From positions 9,458-73,457 of the forward strand of contig VHCI01000003.1 of assembly GCA_016871775.1 (NCBI GenBank): a DNA stretch of 64,000 nucleotides, given 5' to 3'. This document shows, piece by piece, positions 1 to 42,204 of this stretch. The notes below the pieces were generated by a model. The model worked only from the letters and a program-made list of their open reading frames with translations. It was not told the DNA's origin and ran no database searches. Each line of letters starts with the position of its first letter. The first letter of the stretch is position 1. This DNA is from Verrucomicrobiota bacterium (GTDB lineage Bacteria > Verrucomicrobiota > Verrucomicrobiia > Opitutales > Opitutaceae). The position numbers and the translations under genes are program-made.

Positions 1-149
1 GTTGGCGGTTGAGCAGCGGGGCGAGAGGGCGAGCAGATTTCGGTCGAGTAAGCCCGACGCCTACCCGGAGGGTAGGTGGAGCGGCTGACGCAGACCGAAG
101 GGTGCCGTCCAATCGTCTCGGGGCGACCCGTCCAACTGAATGAGTCCGG
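1..149. mobile_element. MITE-like structured repeat, copy A (left end lies outside the window)
   Basis: Colinear and nearly gap-free with 29751-29898 (shared GAGCAGCGGGG, TACCCGGAGGGTA, CTCGGGGCGACCCG, CAACTGAAT). Followed by CTGAG, the reverse complement of the CTCAG flank of copy B. Confidence 0.75.
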
Positions 150-206
150 CTGAGGCCGGCGCCGGGCGCGCCGCGCTCGGCGCTAGCCTTTGGGCAGGGA
201 ATCCGT

Positions 207-3074
207 TTGCTCTTGGCGATGCCCCAACCCACCCGCCTGCTCGCCACGCTCCTGCTGGGCGCCCTCACCCTGCCCGCGGCCGCGCCCCGCTTCGCCCATG
301 AGGACAGCGACCTCCGGCCCGACCCGGCCGCCCGCTTTGGTAAGCTCGAAAACGGCCTGCGCTACGTCGTCCTCCGCAACGCCGAGCCCAAGGGCCGCGC
401 CTCGCTCCGCCTTCTGATCCACGCCGGCAGCCTGCACGAGGAGGAGGACCAGCGCGGGGTCGCTCACTTCCTCGAGCACATGGCCTTCAACGGCAGCCGC
501 AACTTCGCGCCCGGCACGCTCGTGGAATTCTTCCAGCGGATGGGGATGAGCTTCGGCGGGGACACCAACGCCTCCACCGGCTTCGACCGCACGCTCTACC
601 TGCTGGAACTGCCCGAGACCTCCGAGGCCACGCTCGCCGAGGGCCTCCGCGTCTTCGGCGACTACGCCGCCGGCCTCCTGCTCGCCCCCGCGGAGATCGA
701 CCGCGAGCGCGGCATCATCCTCAGCGAGAAGCGTGCGCGCGACACCGTCGGCTTCCGCACCGCCGTCGCGCAGTTCGAGTTTATGCTCGGCGACACCCTC
801 CTGCCCCGCCGGATGCCCATCGGCGTCGCGGAGGTCATCCAGGGCGCCCCGCGCGAGAGCTTCCTCGCCTTCTGGGACCGCTGGTACCGCCCCGAACGGA
901 TGGCCGCGGTGATCGTGGGCGACGTCGACCCCGACCTCGCGGAACGCCTCGTCCGCGCGGCCTTCGCGCCCCTCACTGGCCGCGGCCCAGCCCCGGCGGA
1001 GCCGGACCGGGGCCGCGTGACGCGGTTCGACGGCGTGCGGGCGCGCTTCCACCCGGAGCCGGAGGCGACCGCCACCAGCGTGTCGCTGGCCGTGCTGGCG
1101 CCTCACCGGGCGGAGCCGGACAACGCCGCCCAGCGCGTGAGCCGCCTGCCGCGGCAGTTCGCGGTGTCGATGCTCAACCGCCGGCTCTCCGTCCTCGCCC
1201 GGCGTGAGGGGACCGCGTTCAGCGCCGCCCGCGTCTCGGTCAACGAGGGTTACCGGATCTACCGCGAGGCCACGGTTGACCTGACCTGCAAGCCGGAGCA
1301 GTGGGCCGCCGCGCTCGCGGTCGGGGAGCAGGAGCTGCGGCGCGCGCTGGAGCACGGGTTCCAGGCCGGCGAATTGGCGGAGACCAAGGCCTCGTACCGC
1401 AACGCCGTCGAGCAGGCCGTCCGCGGCGCCCCCACGCGGCGCTCCGGTAACCTCGCGGGCGAGATCGCGCAGTCGATCCTCGACGAGCGCGTGTTCACGC
1501 ACCCGGCGGCGACCCGCGACCTCTACCTGCCGGCGGTCGAGCGCATCACGGCAGCGGAGTGCCTCGCGGGGCTGCGCGAAGCGTTCACCGGCAACGGCCG
1601 GCACCTGATGGTCAGCGGCAACGTGACGCTGCCCGGCGACGCCGCCGCGGCCATCCTCGCCGCGCACACCGCTTCCGCTAGAGTCGCCGTGGAGCCGCCC
1701 GCGGACGCCGCGGAGGCGCGCTGGGCCTACACCGATTTCGGGGCCCCCGGACAGGTGGTCCGCCGGGAGCACGTCGCGGACCTCGACGTCACGCTCGTCA
1801 CCTTCGCCAACGGCGTGCGCCTGAACCTGAAGCGCACGGACTTCGAGGCCGGCATCCGGGTGAGCGCGCGCGTCGGCACCGGCGGCCTGACCGAACCGGC
1901 GGACCGGCGGGGGCTGGTGATGCTCGCCAACAGCGCGTTCACCGCCGGCGGGTTGGGCCGGCACGGGGTCGACGACCTCCGCCGGGTGCTCGCGGGCCGC
2001 AACGCGGGGATCAGTTTCCGGGTTGGCCAGGACGCGCTCGAGCTCGGCAACGCGGGCGGCGGAGGTGGCCGCGGCGGCCGGGGCGGCGGCGGGGGCGGCA
2101 CGACCCGCGAAGATCTGCTGCTTACGCTCCAACTGCTGACCGCGCACCTCACCGATCCCGGTTACCGGCCGGAGGCGCTGCGGCAGGTCCGCACCGGGAT
2201 GGAACAGATGTACACCGGATTCGCGCACACGCCCAACGGGCCGCTCTCCACCGAGGTCGCGAGCCTGATCGCGGGCGGCGACCACCGCTTCGGCGTACCG
2301 CCACGCGAGGTCCTCCTGGCCCGCGAACTCGGCGAGGTCCGGGAATGGCTCGCGCCCCAGCTCGCCCGCGGCGCGATCGAGGTCGCGCTGATCGGCGACC
2401 TCGACCCGGAGACCGCGATCGACGCCGTCGCCCGCACCCTCGGCGCGCTGCCGACGCGCGAGGAGCGGCCCGCCCTCGCGGACCTGCGGCGGGTCACGTT
2501 CCCCCGGGAGCCGTTCACTCGCGAGTACCGGATCAGCTCCGAGATCCCGAAGGGTGTGGTCGCGCTGTTCTGGCCCACCACGGATGCGTCCGACATCCGC
2601 CGCACGCGTCGCCTCACTCTGCTCGCAGGCGTGTTTAGCGACCGGTTGCGGGTGAAGATCCGCGAGGAGATGGGCGGCACCTACAGCCCCCGCGCGGCCA
2701 GCGCCTCCAGCGACACCTTCGCCGGGTACGGTTACCTCTCTACCTCGATCGACGTCGACCCGACCGCCGCCGCCAAGGTGCGGGAGGCCGTGGTGGACCT
2801 CGCCGACGACCTCGCCCGGAACGGGGTGACCGACGAGGAGCTCGAGCGGGCGCGTCTGCCAGCGCGGACCGCCGCCCGCGAGTCGCTCCGCACCAACGCG
2901 TACTGGCTGCAAGCCGTCCTCCCGCGCGCGCAGGAAAAGCCCGAGGTGCTCGACTGGGCGCGCTCCCGCACCGCGGACCTGGAGGCCGTTACCGCCGCTG
3001 AGCTCTCGGCGCTGGCCCGCGAGTACCTCCGCCGCGGGCGCGTGAGCCGCGTGACGGTCCTGCCGGGTTCCTGA
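207..3074 (+). CDS. Exported M16 family zinc protease (PqqL-like, fused two-module type)
   Basis: HFLEH inverted zincin motif followed by MAFNGS; N-terminal signal peptide; ~950 aa. The start could be ATG 219. Confidence 0.92.
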   Translation: MLLAMPQPTRLLATLLLGALTLPAAAPRFAHEDSDLRPDPAARFGKLENGLRYVVLRNAEPKGRASLRLLIHAGSLHEEEDQRGVAHFLEHMAFNGSRNFAPGTLVEFFQRMGMSFGGDTNASTGFDRTLYLLELPETSEATLAEGLRVFGDYAAGLLLAPAEIDRERGIILSEKRARDTVGFRTAVAQFEFMLGDTLLPRRMPIGVAEVIQGAPRESFLAFWDRWYRPERMAAVIVGDVDPDLAERLVRAAFAPLTGRGPAPAEPDRGRVTRFDGVRARFHPEPEATATSVSLAVLAPHRAEPDNAAQRVSRLPRQFAVSMLNRRLSVLARREGTAFSAARVSVNEGYRIYREATVDLTCKPEQWAAALAVGEQELRRALEHGFQAGELAETKASYRNAVEQAVRGAPTRRSGNLAGEIAQSILDERVFTHPAATRDLYLPAVERITAAECLAGLREAFTGNGRHLMVSGNVTLPGDAAAAILAAHTASARVAVEPPADAAEARWAYTDFGAPGQVVRREHVADLDVTLVTFANGVRLNLKRTDFEAGIRVSARVGTGGLTEPADRRGLVMLANSAFTAGGLGRHGVDDLRRVLAGRNAGISFRVGQDALELGNAGGGGGRGGRGGGGGGTTREDLLLTLQLLTAHLTDPGYRPEALRQVRTGMEQMYTGFAHTPNGPLSTEVASLIAGGDHRFGVPPREVLLARELGEVREWLAPQLARGAIEVALIGDLDPETAIDAVARTLGALPTREERPALADLRRVTFPREPFTREYRISSEIPKGVVALFWPTTDASDIRRTRRLTLLAGVFSDRLRVKIREEMGGTYSPRAASASSDTFAGYGYLSTSIDVDPTAAAKVREAVVDLADDLARNGVTDEELERARLPARTAARESLRTNAYWLQAVLPRAQEKPEVLDWARSRTADLEAVTAAELSALAREYLRRGRVSRVTVLPGS

Positions 3075-26766: not shown

Positions 26767-29637
26767 TCATTCGAGGTAACGGAAATCCGCGCTGGCGAAG
26801 AGCGCCTGCACCAGCTGCGCCCACGCCGCGGCCGCCGGCTCGCCCGGGGGCACGCTGGCGAGGAAACCGCGGGCCAGCGCCGCCTCGCCCGCCCGCGGGG
26901 GGCGGCCGAGGATGATGCGGCAGGCGCGGGCGAAACGCGCGTCGTCGTCCGCCGCGGGCGTCTCACGCGCGAGGCGTTTGGCCGCGTGCCGCGCCTGCTC
27001 GAGCACAAACGGGTGGTTCAGCAGGAACAGCGCCTGCGGGGCCACCGTGGTCGCGTGCCGGCGGGCGAGCGGCGCGTTGATGTCGGCGAAGTCGAAGGCC
27101 TCAAAGAGGTCCAGGCGGCGGTTGCGGAAGGCGGGCGTGTAGACGCTCCGCCGCAGGTCCGCGAAGACAAACCCGTACTCGCTCGCCGGCGGCGACGCGC
27201 CAAGGTTCGGCCCACCCACCGCGGCGTCGAGCCGGCCCGCCGCCAGCAGCAGCGCGTCGCGGACCTCCTCCGCCTCCAGGCGCCGCCGCCGCGCGTGCGA
27301 CAGGAGCCGGTTCGCGGGATCGCGCTCCGCCGCGCCCGGCGGCGGCGCGGACGACAACTGGTAGACGCGCGAGAGCACGATCTCCCGCACGAGGGCCTTC
27401 ACGGACCAGCCGTCCGCCGTGAACCGCAGCGCGAGGTGGTCGAGCAGTTCGGGGTGCGTCGGCGCCTCCCCGGTGGTGCCGAAGTTATCCACCGTCCGGA
27501 CCAAGCCCTCGCCGAGCAGCCAGGCCCAAACGCGGTTGACGGTCACGCGGGCGGTCAACGGGTGGCCTGGGTCCGCGATCCAGTCGGCCAGCTCGCGGCG
27601 CCCACTCTCGTCGGGCCGGAAGCCCGGGGCCTCGCCGCGGTGGGCGACGGCGAGGAAGCCGCGCGGCACCTTGGGCCCGAGGTTGCGCGCGATCCCGCGC
27701 ACCCGTATCTCCGTGTCGCCGATCTCCCCGGCCGCCTCGCGCACGCTCATCGCCAGCGGCCGCCGCGGGCCGGACGCGGCGAGCTGCTTCAGCTCCGCCT
27801 CGACTCGGCGCAGCTCAGCGGCCCGCTCCCCGGCGGCGGGGTCCGCGCGGTCCGGCGGGACGGCGGTCCCCTCCCCGCGCACGTCAAGCGGCAGCAGCTG
27901 CAGGGCATCCACGGTCACATGGCCGTCCGTGCCCTCGTTGGAGATCAGCACGTAGCCCTGGCCGTCCTTCTCGAAGCGAAACTGCCCCAGCGACAGCAGG
28001 CGCTCGCCGCCGGGCGGGGCCGTGCGCTGGTTGACGGTGACCGTAGCCTCGCCGTCCGCGTGGAGGATCGTGACGGGCACGTTAGAGGCGCGGTTAGCCG
28101 CGACGGTATAGGCGAGCCGCACCTCGTAGCGCCCGGACTGCGGCAACGCGGGCGTGAAGGAGACGGTCTTGGCGCCCTTGCCCTCGTTCTCGTCGGTGAG
28201 GTAGCCCTCGCCGACGTAGCCCGGGGTGGTGCGCGAGGCCTTCCAGGCGCCGACGACGCGGGCCTGGCCCTCGTCGAGGACGAGGCCGGGCAGCTCGGCG
28301 GCGGCGACGTTGCGGGGACCCTTCCCGGCGGGGGCGCGGGCGGCGGCGCGGAGCCGGGCGGCCTGCTTCTCGAGGGCGGCGAGCTTGGCCTCGTGTGCCG
28401 CGACGGCGTGTTCCTCGTCGGGCGGGAGCGGGAGCGCCGCGTCGACCCAGCGGGCCACGTTGTCGGTGTAGTTGTGCAGCGTGTGCGTCCCGCGGAGGAT
28501 GCCGGCGAGGCCGTAGTAATCGCGGAGCGTGACCGGGTCGAACTTGTGGTCGTGGCAGCGGGCGCAGCTGAGCGTCATCCCGAGGAAGGCCTTGCCGAGG
28601 GTGTCGAGCTGCTCGTCGATGATGTCCATCCGCAGCTGGTCCTTGTTCTGTTCCTCGTAATTGGTGGGGCCGAGGGTGAGGAAGGCGGTGGCGGTGAGGC
28701 GGCGGGCGCGCTCGGCGGAATCGGCCGAAGGGAGGAGGTCGCCGGCGAGCTGCTCGCGGATGAAAGCGTCGAAGGGCAGGTCGCGGTTGACCGCGTCGAT
28801 CACGTAGTCGCGGTAGCGCCAGGCGTCCTTGAACAGGAGGGTGCGGCCGCCGCCGCTGGACTCGGCGAAGCGGGCGACGTCGAGCCAGCGCCGGCCCCAG
28901 CGTTCGCCGAATTGCGGGGAGGCGAGCATCGCGTCGACTTGGCGGGCGAAGGCGGCCGGGCCGGGGTCGCGGAGGAAGGCGGCGGTCTGCTCTGGGGTGG
29001 GCGGGAGCCCGAGGAGGTCGAAGGAGGCGCGGCGGAGGAGGGCGGCGGGTTCGGCGTCGGGCGCGGGGGCGAGGTTCATTTCGGGCCAGCGGGCGGCGAT
29101 GAACCGGTCGATCGCGGTGCGGGCCCAGCCGGCGGGGTCGGGAGCCGGCACGGCGGCGGGAGCCGGCGGGACGAAGCTCCAGAAGCGGCGGCCCTCCTCG
29201 ATCGTCATCGCGCGGCGGGCCGGGGCGGCGCCGGGGACGGGCGCGGGCTCGTCGGGGGCGGGGGCGCCGCGGCGGACCCATTCCTCGAGCAGGGCGACCT
29301 CCTCGCGGGAGAGCGCGGAGCGGGGCGGCATCGCCTCGAACTCGAGCTTGGTGTAACGGATCGCCTTGATCAGCGGGCTCTCGTCGGGGCGGCCCGGGAG
29401 CACGGCGGGGCCGGAGTCGCCACCGACCAGCCAGCCGGCGGGGTGGTCGAGGCGGAGGCCGGCCTTGATCTTGTGTTCCGCGGCGTGGCACTCGAGGCAC
29501 CGGGCGGCCAGCAGCGGCCGGATGCTCTTCTCGAAGAATTCGATGCCAGCCGGGTCCGCGGCGGCGGCCGGCGCGGCGAAAGCAAGGCCCGCGCAGGCGC
29601 GCGCAAGGCGACGAAGGGTACCGGACAGGGGTGACAC
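26767..29637 (-). CDS. PSD1/planctomycete cytochrome C protein (PSCyt1+DUF1549+DUF1553) with internal beta-sandwich/CBM-like domain
   Basis: FFEKSIRPLLAARCLECH, GERWGRRWLDVARFAES, CARCHDHKFDP, HPELLDHLA. The start could be 29682. Confidence 0.9.
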   Translation of the reverse strand: MSPLSGTLRRLARACAGLAFAAPAAAADPAGIEFFEKSIRPLLAARCLECHAAEHKIKAGLRLDHPAGWLVGGDSGPAVLPGRPDESPLIKAIRYTKLEFEAMPPRSALSREEVALLEEWVRRGAPAPDEPAPVPGAAPARRAMTIEEGRRFWSFVPPAPAAVPAPDPAGWARTAIDRFIAARWPEMNLAPAPDAEPAALLRRASFDLLGLPPTPEQTAAFLRDPGPAAFARQVDAMLASPQFGERWGRRWLDVARFAESSGGGRTLLFKDAWRYRDYVIDAVNRDLPFDAFIREQLAGDLLPSADSAERARRLTATAFLTLGPTNYEEQNKDQLRMDIIDEQLDTLGKAFLGMTLSCARCHDHKFDPVTLRDYYGLAGILRGTHTLHNYTDNVARWVDAALPLPPDEEHAVAAHEAKLAALEKQAARLRAAARAPAGKGPRNVAAAELPGLVLDEGQARVVGAWKASRTTPGYVGEGYLTDENEGKGAKTVSFTPALPQSGRYEVRLAYTVAANRASNVPVTILHADGEATVTVNQRTAPPGGERLLSLGQFRFEKDGQGYVLISNEGTDGHVTVDALQLLPLDVRGEGTAVPPDRADPAAGERAAELRRVEAELKQLAASGPRRPLAMSVREAAGEIGDTEIRVRGIARNLGPKVPRGFLAVAHRGEAPGFRPDESGRRELADWIADPGHPLTARVTVNRVWAWLLGEGLVRTVDNFGTTGEAPTHPELLDHLALRFTADGWSVKALVREIVLSRVYQLSSAPPPGAAERDPANRLLSHARRRRLEAEEVRDALLLAAGRLDAAVGGPNLGASPPASEYGFVFADLRRSVYTPAFRNRRLDLFEAFDFADINAPLARRHATTVAPQALFLLNHPFVLEQARHAAKRLARETPAADDDARFARACRIILGRPPRAGEAALARGFLASVPPGEPAAAAWAQLVQALFASADFRYLE

Positions 29638-29737
29638 GGGAGGCGGGGTGGCCGCGGCGGGGAGCCGCGACCCCGGGAGCAAGCGTCAACCCCGCGCCGG
29701 AGGCAAGCGGGCAGATGGTCTCCCCCGGACGCCTCAG

Positions 29738-29898
29738 CCGGGACGATTCAATTGGAGGCGGAGCAGCGGGGTGAGATGGCGAGCGCATTTCAGCGGCGAA
29801 GGACCGAGGAATACCCGGAGGGTATTGCGACGGGAGAGAGCCACTGAAAGGTGCCGGCAGGTCACCTCGGGGCGACCCGATCAACTGAATCGTCCGGG
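29738..29898. mobile_element. MITE-like structured repeat, copy B (complete)
   Basis: Terminal inverted repeats CCGGGACGATTCAATTG / CAACTGAATCGTCCGGG (2 mismatches in 17). Flanked by direct repeat CTCAG (29733-37, 29899-903). No ORF inside. Confidence 0.8.
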
Positions 29899-29899
29899 C

Positions 29900-30685
29900 T
29901 CAGGGCTGCGCCTGCTTCTTCGGCGGCGGGTTGCGGCCCTGCGCGCTGACGACCTTCGGCTTGTCGATCTTCCGCGCCCCCGCCGGCAGCGCCGCCGCGT
30001 CGAACGCCGCCGCCGGGACGGGCGGCAATTCCCTCAGCAGCACCTGTTTCACGTAGGTGCGGTGCGGCACGCCGGCGTGAAGCTGGATCGCGATCAGCCC
30101 CTCGAGCGCCCGGTACTGGGCGTCGTGGTCAATGAACACCGAGGTCGTGCGGCCGTTGACGCGGTGCTCGAGCCGGTTGCCCCGGGCGATGACGGTGAAC
30201 TCATTCCATTGCGCCAGATCGGCCGTGACCCGCGGGCGCTCGCCCACCTGCCAGCGCTGGCCGGTGGGATCCATCACGACGTCGACCCCGTTGTAACCGA
30301 AGATGCCGCGCCCGCGCTCCTCGTAGGTCATCGCGGTGTGAACGTCCACCGGGTGCACGTCGCACTGGTAACCCTGGATCGTCCACGGCGTGACCTCCGG
30401 CAGGCGGCGGCTGCGGTACTGGATGCCCGAGTTGTTGTCGCCGACGACCTTCACCGTGGCCCGCAGCTCGAAGTCACGGACCGTTCCCTTCCAGATCAGG
30501 AACGAGTTGGTCCGCGGTTTGCCCGGCTCGCTCGTGCCGACGATCACGCCGTCCTCCACCCGCCACAGCCCGGGCTCCCCGTCCCAGCCGGTGAGGTCGC
30601 GGCCGTTGAAGAGCGGCGTGAAGCCCTCCGCGGCGAACGCGGGGGCGCAGAGGAGGACAAGGAGGGTGAGTCGGAGGGGGAGCAT
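29900..30685 (-). CDS. Exported DUF1080 (3-keto-disaccharide hydrolase-like) protein
   Basis: LFNGRDLTGWDG, NSGIQYRS, GYQCD, WNEFTVIARG, IAIQLH. Confidence 0.9.
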   Translation of the reverse strand: MLPLRLTLLVLLCAPAFAAEGFTPLFNGRDLTGWDGEPGLWRVEDGVIVGTSEPGKPRTNSFLIWKGTVRDFELRATVKVVGDNNSGIQYRSRRLPEVTPWTIQGYQCDVHPVDVHTAMTYEERGRGIFGYNGVDVVMDPTGQRWQVGERPRVTADLAQWNEFTVIARGNRLEHRVNGRTTSVFIDHDAQYRALEGLIAIQLHAGVPHRTYVKQVLLRELPPVPAAAFDAAALPAGARKIDKPKVVSAQGRNPPPKKQAQP

Positions 30686-34178: not shown

Positions 34179-34254
34179 GTCCCCGTAGCTCAACTGGATA
34201 GAGCAGCGGTTTCCTAAACCGCCTATCCCGGTTCAAGTCCGGGCGGGGGCACCA
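34179..34254 (+). tRNA. tRNA-Arg(CCT)
   Basis: Acceptor GTCCCCG/CGGGGGC, D-arm TAGCTCAACTGGATAGAGC, anticodon arm GCGGT-TTCCTAA-ACCGC, GTTCAAGTCC, CCA end. Confidence 0.96.
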
Positions 34255-42116: not shown

Positions 42117-42204
42117 TGGTGCCCGGAGTGGGGGTCGAACCCACAAGCCTTTAGAGGGCGGTGGATTTTGAGTCCACTGCGTCTGCCAATTCCGCCATCC
42201 GGGC
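42117..42204 (-). tRNA. tRNA-Leu(CAA)
   Basis: Minus strand GCCCGGATGGCGGAATTGGCAGACGC, anticodon arm GTGGA-CTCAAAA-TCCAC, long variable arm, GGTTCGACCCCC, CCA end. Confidence 0.96.

Follow-up and report, generated by a model that had tools for sequence, protein, structure and literature searches.

The stretch of DNA analysed here (the window: 64,000 nt of contig VHCI01000003.1 from a bacterium of the Opitutaceae) carries two diverged copies of a repeat, A and B, the stems of which had been read in a first-pass annotation as being kept by compensatory changes, and this raises the question of whether selection is acting on a folded strand or whether the repeat is a passive MITE. The repeat is almost certainly a MITE of the IS1380 family, and its fold is quite probably under selection; that the two hold together, with selection bearing on a fold of one strand and with the choice between DNA and RNA set aside, appears likely on balance.

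Both copies are present in the window, with limits other than those first assigned to them: copy A begins 14 nt upstream of the window start and reaches window position 150 (contig C3:9444-9607), and copy B occupies 29737-29899 and not 29751-29898. With the upstream contig sequence included, copy A reads GCCGGACTCATTCAGTTGG...CCAACTGAATGAGTCCGGC (164 nt) and gives a covariance-model match of 169 bits (G000:C3:9444-9607). The final 4 nt of its left terminal inverted repeat are window positions 1-4. The left copy of its target immediately precedes the window and serves the upstream gene as stop codon, the ORF ending on this TGA being open for at least 496 codons with a GC3 of 0.95. The features of the two copies and of their neighbourhood are the following.

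1-150, + strand: copy A, a MITE of the A-type subfamily, its first 14 nt cut off by the window start (full length 164 nt)
5-132, + strand: core of copy A, a rod-like, imperfect hairpin in which the internal loops are rich in purines and the apical loop is GGA (67-69)
133-149, + strand: right terminal inverted repeat of copy A, CAACTGAATGAGTCCGG, a perfect 19-bp complement of the left end
150-154, + strand: right duplicated target of copy A, CTGAG, with TGA at 151-153
207-3074: M16 peptidase gene, after copy A, which is itself preceded by a + strand ORF
26767-29682, - strand: DUF1549/DUF1553 gene, the other neighbour of copy B
29733-29737, + strand: left duplicated target of copy B, CTCAG
29737-29899, + strand: copy B, a MITE of the B-type subfamily, 163 nt, with a covariance-model match of 192.9 bits
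29738-29754, + strand: left terminal inverted repeat of copy B, CCGGGACGATTCAATTG
29755-29881, + strand: core of copy B, the same rod as in A with stems that differ by compensated pairs
29882-29898, + strand: right terminal inverted repeat of copy B, CAACTGAATCGTCCGGG
29899-29903, + strand: right duplicated target of copy B, CTCAG, in which TCA at 29900-29902 is the minus-strand TGA stop of the gene at 29900-30685
29900-30685, - strand: 3-keto-disaccharide hydrolase gene (Pfam PF06439, 117 bits), adjoining copy B

Elsewhere in the window lie two tRNA genes, at 34179-34251 (+) and 42120-42204 (-), which are its sole Rfam matches.

The element measures 162-165 nt, has no coding capacity and forms one hairpin over its whole length. 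Its terminal inverted repeats of 17-19 bp are perfect in all multi-copy subfamily consensuses, and a 17-bp pattern, CCGG....AT(G/T)CA(G/A)TTG, stands at both ends of a core of about 125 nt. The genome of origin holds about 15 copies (about 13 full and 3 partial), every one of which has C-TNA-G on both flanks. Among 116 non-redundant copies, 62 show an identical middle base of the TNA on the two sides, which identifies the flanking motif as a target duplication and not as an extension of the palindrome; the duplication can be read equally as 5 bp (CTNAG, with ends starting CCGG) or as 3 bp (TNA, with ends one base longer). When the flanks of several copies were joined and the genus was searched with them, the site of copy B was found uninterrupted in the closest relative (G012:C153), with a single CTCAG and flanks 95% identical, and also in G065, while the site of copy A was empty in G010, G022, G043 and G068, and the sites of the copies on C81 and C30 were empty in several genomes.

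The strong fold and its covariation could also have come from a stand-alone, immobile family of structured noncoding RNA genes present in many copies, but this is highly improbable given the target duplications, the empty sites in the closest relative, the patchy occurrence (12 of the 61 genomes of the genus, by the covariance model) and the ends held in common with an IS. The comparison with known structured RNAs that the annotation had proposed brought no family match: at gathering and permissive Rfam thresholds the window returned only the two tRNAs at gathering score, and nothing below E = 2.9 around copy B. As a statement of identity, the annotation's phrase 'rather than a passive MITE' has to be abandoned, the repeat being a genuine MITE with inverted repeats, a duplicated CTNAG, empty sites in relatives and ends of the IS1380 family.

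Across the family, the covariance model detects the element in 24 of 251 sampled Opitutaceae genomes, representing 10 of 63 genera, and it was not found in other families of the order. The carriers are MAGs of freshwater Opitutaceae/Verrucomicrobiota (Lake Tanganyika, Mendota, Erken, the Tous reservoir and ponds), and several that are labelled 'uncultured Akkermansia sp.' look like Opitutaceae. A contig labelled as a Rubrivivax sp. MAG (L162) has a MITE and flanks identical to those of an Opitutaceae MAG from the same pond study (L051, in G022), which is probably a mis-binned contig and not a transfer to a betaproteobacterium. Matches to the core pattern in Actinomadura, Jiangella, Polyangiales and others are due to chance, none of them matching the covariance model. 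Core-only copies lacking inverted repeats were likewise dismissed, since the three partial covariance-model matches proved to be one decayed copy and two copies at contig ends.

Some copies depart from the standard form. Mini elements of about 62 nt (G000:C127:6511-6574, G011:C207:1955-2016, G068:C36:30674-30735 and G041:C89:31541-31602) keep both ends and the basal stem but are missing two thirds of the rod on the distal side, as though the tip of the hairpin had been deleted. In the MAG CSMAG_1311, two independent loci (L205 and L209) contain the same G+C-rich, hairpin-forming insert of about 95 nt in the 3' arm, and another copy (L186) has a 22-nt insert at a similar place. Outside the window, at G000:C158:3992-4439, a direct duplication of 164 bp takes in 60 nt of left flank and some 86 nt from the start of a MITE; the full copy comes next, and the MITE seems to have been the breakpoint for a local tandem duplication.

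A search of the genus with the IS1380 model revealed seven full-length IS elements of 1484-1503 bp. The transposases of the six intact ones score 230-247 bits against NF033539 (IS1380; cut-off 180), and the seventh (L148) is degraded, with internal stops and 86 bits; perfect CTNAG direct repeats flank four of the seven. Their ends are of three types, namely CCGGACTCATGCAGTTG, which is exactly the A type, the B-like CCGGAGCGATTCAATAG / CCGGAACGATTCAGTAG, and the C-like CCGGGATCATGCAATTG, which matches a third MITE subfamily; compared with the MITE, the ends of L137, L134, L139, L154, L133 and L148 are identical for the A type and near-identical for the B and C types. In the window, the right repeat of copy A (CAACTGAATGAGTCCGG) has one mismatch to the full-length ends CCGGACTCATGCAGTTG, and the left repeat of copy B (CCGGGACGATTCAATTG) three mismatches to those of the second IS1380 lineage. 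A scan for DDE transposases in the carrier G022 also disclosed a truncated IS1380 gene (L125; 84 bits over the last 130 model positions), the stop codon of which falls inside the repeat, at a distance of 7 nt from an end that is exactly of the A type and in which CTCAG is followed by CCGGACTCATGCAGTTG. The window's own genome and several other carriers, which are incomplete MAGs, yielded no IS1380 transposase. Since the MITE has the same ends and target duplication as these elements, it is presumably moved in trans by IS1380 transposases.

An IS5-family parent (IS1031/IS427 groups), first suggested by the TNA duplication, was rejected after searches with PF13586 and PF01609 had yielded only an unrelated element. 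PF13586 is absent from the carriers except for this 862-bp IS5-family element (L074:919-1780, G022:C44), which encodes a 248-aa transposase, has ends GGGGCGTCTTCAAAAT and CTAG flanks, and is unrelated to the MITE, its end being loosely similar. A TIR-like end at C160:4595 of the window's own genome was also discarded as a full-length parent, having neither a transposase nor a partner end. At this place (G000:C160:4590-6586), CTGAA followed by CCGAACTCATGCAGTTGAAAG resembles a MITE or IS end, and beyond it the G+C content drops and unrelated small proteins are encoded, so that the stretch could mark the border of a further mobile element or island. Six of the IS1380-type elements (L137, L134, L135, L133, L148 and L125) contain, about 65 nt inside the transposase-distal end and within the transposase coding region, a small palindrome, CAACTGCATCGCAGT(T/C)G, formed by two inverted copies of the inner repeat motif GCAGTTG.

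While the ends of the MITE are those of IS elements, its core is not: compared by BLAST and local alignment with both ends of the seven full-length ISs and with the single end of the truncated copy, the core gave nothing above shuffles (z < 2.5), and a derivation of the core from IS ends was rejected on this lack of detectable similarity. At least six end types occur among the MITE variants, which follow different IS lineages, and chimeric subfamilies carry A ends on a B core. The core, on the other hand, is common to all subfamilies, including its loop positions. The terminal helix of the hairpin consists of the inverted repeats themselves and, because both ends must suit one transposase, its covariation can be explained by transposase recognition with no need for folding.

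Folded on their own, the two copies each form one long rod, with a minimum free energy of -112.8 kcal/mol for A (z -10.0) and -91.3 kcal/mol for B (z -8.8), at a mutual identity of about 73%. The stems quoted in the annotation read as given, both that of A formed by CCTACC (60-65) and GGTAGG (71-76) around CGGAG (66-70), with AATACC (29810-29815) and GGTATT (29821-29826) in B, and that in which TTTCGGTC (38-45) pairs with GACCGAA (93-99) in A and TTCAGCGGC with GCCACTGAA in B, around 29789-29848. Their preservation by compensatory changes extends to the whole rod. In a model-based alignment, 33 of the 48 aligned pairs are identical in A and B, 11 differ on both sides yet remain paired (4 of these within the terminal helix and 7 in the core), 4 are changed on one side via G-U, and none is broken; when the 26 differing paired columns were placed at random, 30.3 +/- 2.4 pairs survived, and none of 20,000 simulations reached 48.

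The same holds for larger samples. In 61 copies from the genus, 93.4% of the cells are paired, compared with 85.9% after shuffling and 33-44% in controls with slid alignments. With the terminal helix excluded, the cores of 74 copies were assessed against shuffles and slid alignments, and 92.7% of the cells were found to be paired (87.1 +/- 0.3 shuffled; 39-49% slid), with double changes at 14 pairs (9.8 +/- 1.6 expected; attained by 7 of 500 shuffles) and a covariation score of 0.198, as opposed to 0.109 (0 of 500 shuffles). The statistics based on cell counts are inflated by the kinship of sequences inside subfamilies, and the conservative measures are weaker, the observed values being attained by 7 and 11 of 500 shuffles. 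Helix 1 contains 7 of the 15 covarying pairs. The covariation is confirmed as real, in the interior as well as at the ends.

The subfamilies have diverged considerably while keeping the rod. The ten multi-copy consensuses (at least three copies) share 50-90% identity (median 74%) and fold at -85 to -112 kcal/mol, and all 14 subfamilies with at least two copies fold as rods, at -67 to -112 kcal/mol. Subfamily members fold on average more weakly than their own consensus, and singleton, that is old, copies have a mean of -74.6 kcal/mol. Asymmetric internal loops occupy the same place, with largely the same sequence, in all subfamilies, and this shared asymmetry rules out an independent origin of each subfamily as a fresh palindrome. 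By parsimony on the tree, changes that turn a Watson-Crick pair into a mismatch (103 events) are private, with a mean clade size of 1.5, those to G-U (57 events) are intermediate (3.3), and compensated changes from one Watson-Crick pair to another (20 events) are shared (9.8). Changes to G-U exceed those to A-C (57 versus 37, p ~0.05), this split being another of the weaker, conservative measures. Pairs that switch between A-U and G-C pass via G-U (one such pair is A-U in 31 copies, G-U in 10 and G-C in 20), and one switch from C-G to A-U goes through A·G. Within subfamilies, paired positions are substituted at a rate of 0.042 and unpaired ones at 0.058 (p 3e-4).

The fold belongs to one strand, the + strand in the window. 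On this strand, purines make up 345 (89%) of the 389 unpaired bases of the consensuses, many of them in tandem as G-A opposite A-G; 206 cells hold G-U and 47 A-C; and in all 14 of 14 subfamilies the top strand folds more stably than the bottom strand, with RNA and DNA energy parameters alike. The constraint on a folded single-stranded shape claimed in the annotation is borne out to this extent: the covariation persists in a large alignment, also when the inverted-repeat helix is left out, and it is strand-specific.

Part of this evidence would also be compatible with a passive MITE on whose fold no selection acts, which would have originated as a near-perfect palindrome, spread in young bursts and had its inner stems kept paired by slipped or template-switched copying of one arm from the other, the terminal helix being kept by the matching of ends. 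The 4 of 11 A/B double changes that lie within the inverted repeats and the share of helix 1 among the covarying pairs are in keeping with it, as are the only moderate significance of the conservative shuffle measures and the decay of single copies, seen in the weak folding of singletons and in the orthologue of copy A in G012, which differs at 7 of 164 positions, about the divergence of the flanks. However, the rod is kept in all subfamily consensuses, down to 50% identity, and the conserved asymmetric loops should have been erased by arm-to-arm copying. This copying is blind to the strand and predicts neither a strand bias nor conserved loops, whereas the intermediates are G-U or purine-purine and not A-C or pyrimidine-pyrimidine, and the loops are overwhelmingly of purines. 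We regard the passive origin of the pattern as unlikely. The annotation had pictured, as the case against its own proposal, exact IS ends combined with neutral internal decay: the ends do match those of IS elements, while the interior is not decaying IS sequence and is structurally conserved.

The position of the copies bears on the form in which the fold would be selected. In 61 of 116 copies (53%), an ORF verified by coding-type GC3 has the duplicated TNA as its stop codon; copy A comes after a + strand gene and copy B after a - strand gene. A rough gene call in the window's own genome indicates that 24% of genes end in C-TGA-G or C-TAA-G, the C-TGA-G context being found at 450 of 1622 TGA stops, and about a quarter of genes offer a harmless stop-codon landing site. 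After correction for missed genes, about 55% of the tolerated CTNAG sites are expected to lie on stop codons. The stop-codon position is thus a consequence of the CTNAG target, and active targeting of stop codons was rejected, the observed 53% corresponding to this target together with the loss of insertions inside genes. Relative to the gene with the duplicated stop, 36 copies are in sense and 25 in antisense orientation, with no significant bias (p 0.2).

If RNA is the selected form, the frequent presence of a stop codon in CTNAG would bring the element into 3' untranslated regions, where it would be co-transcribed as a strong hairpin, acting as a stabilizer of 3' ends or as a terminator devoid of a U-tract; insertions would then do no harm or be of use, which is what has been put forward for Correia, ERIC and bcr1. 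G-U pairs and loops of tandem G-A are typical features in RNA, and bcr1, which is transcribed and has a structure held by compensatory changes, offers a precedent (PMC3184786). On the other hand, the target alone predicts the position at stop codons, old copies decay with no clear maintenance at individual loci, and no U-tract follows the hairpin in copies A and B. The sense bias is not significant, though only the top strand folds favourably; such a weak bias argues against a strictly sense-strand role of RNA and is of no help to the DNA reading either. RNA as the selected form is the main alternative to folded DNA, possible but rather doubtful.

The element inserts into CTNAG, which is duplicated in the process, and IS1380 transposases presumably act in trans on its 17-bp ends. 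The core is a separate module, folding on the + strand into a rod with purine-rich internal loops, and its stems shift between subfamilies by compensated pairs via G-U or purine-purine intermediates. Pair-breaking changes occur only in single dead-end copies, which we read as selection on the fold in the lineage that continues to be transposed, the rod being needed for a copy to leave descendants; because rod-breaking copies persist yet are without descendants, the constraint would fall on transposition and not on a benefit to the host at individual loci. As to the form selected, folded DNA is the reading that we favour, if tentatively, as plausible though short of probable. The working form would be the top DNA strand, folded when exposed in replication or transcription, and its folding would lay both inverted repeats side by side, an arrangement that a transposase would have difficulty in imposing on a stiff duplex of 163 bp. 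DDE transposases of this type are generally taken to use duplex DNA as their substrate, and a requirement for a folded strand is not known in IS1380 or piggyBac-type enzymes. The same rod is carried by at least six end types over ten genera. A further proposal, which we offer as speculative and unlikely, is that the core is a selfish module and that a piggyBac-related DDE transposase requires it, or has a strong preference for it, in the form of a single strand folded strand-specifically into a purine-looped rod, the module having repeatedly been re-equipped with the ends of different IS1380 lineages. If true, this would mean a requirement for a folded-DNA substrate in a class of transposases thought to be duplex-only.

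Folded single-stranded DNA serves as a substrate in integron attC sites and at the ends of IS200/IS605 elements, imperfect hairpins in which structure counts over sequence and one strand is favoured; there the cutting is done by tyrosine or HUH enzymes, and both DDE-type inverted-repeat ends and a target duplication are lacking. The MITE resembles them as an imperfect hairpin with one favoured strand and is not a member of either group; IS200/IS605-type palindromic elements and REP/RAYT were rejected as its class, because the MITE has inverted repeats and a duplicated target and its parent codes for a DDE transposase. Members of the IS1380 family (for example ISEcp1 and ISPme1) have, according to ISfinder, ends that start with CC and target duplications of 4-5 bp. 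The full-length Opitutaceae relatives conform to this family in having a transposase above the model cut-off; they have short inverted repeats starting with CC and a small target duplication if the ends are read as CCGG and the duplication as CTNAG, the other reading being TNA with ends one base longer. The MITE lacks a transposase and has only the 17-bp ends and the target in common with such elements. A literature search found no described MITE of the IS1380 family. Correia/NEMIS elements of Neisseria and enterobacterial ERIC are short, palindromic MITEs that have inverted repeats, duplicate a small target, lie next to genes and can form long hairpins in transcripts. They duplicate TA and in most hosts no cognate transposase has been identified, in contrast to the CTNAG target and the parent IS lineages found for the Opitutaceae MITE, which also differs from them in having a core that conserves its fold under such a variety of ends. 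Overviews of these elements are available (PMC3184786; PMC2229807). The closest parallel in the behaviour of the fold is bcr1 of the Bacillus cereus group, a MITE-like element of about 155 bp with 5-bp direct repeats and a variable distribution (Delihas, 2011; PMC3184786), in which compensatory base-pair changes keep the fold and stability is lost in some copies. Compared by description, the Opitutaceae MITE is like bcr1 in the compensatory maintenance of its fold and unlike it in forming one long rod, in having a known parent IS family (IS1380) and in its host phylum, Verrucomicrobiota.

A hairpin kept by compensating changes is uncommon for MITEs, yet is already on record; MITEs that keep their folds being known, it is the evidence for a strand-specific structural constraint that is unusually clear here. 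For the annotation of freshwater Opitutaceae, the element explains a recurrent 163-nt signal resembling structured RNA at gene ends, which should not be taken for a riboswitch or a small RNA gene. With more than 110 copies in 14 subfamilies, and with its parent ISs known and its empty sites dated, it constitutes a natural data set on the success of MITEs, in which a spreading lineage preserves a fold of one strand while its copies decay and in which the role of a MITE hairpin becomes directly testable.
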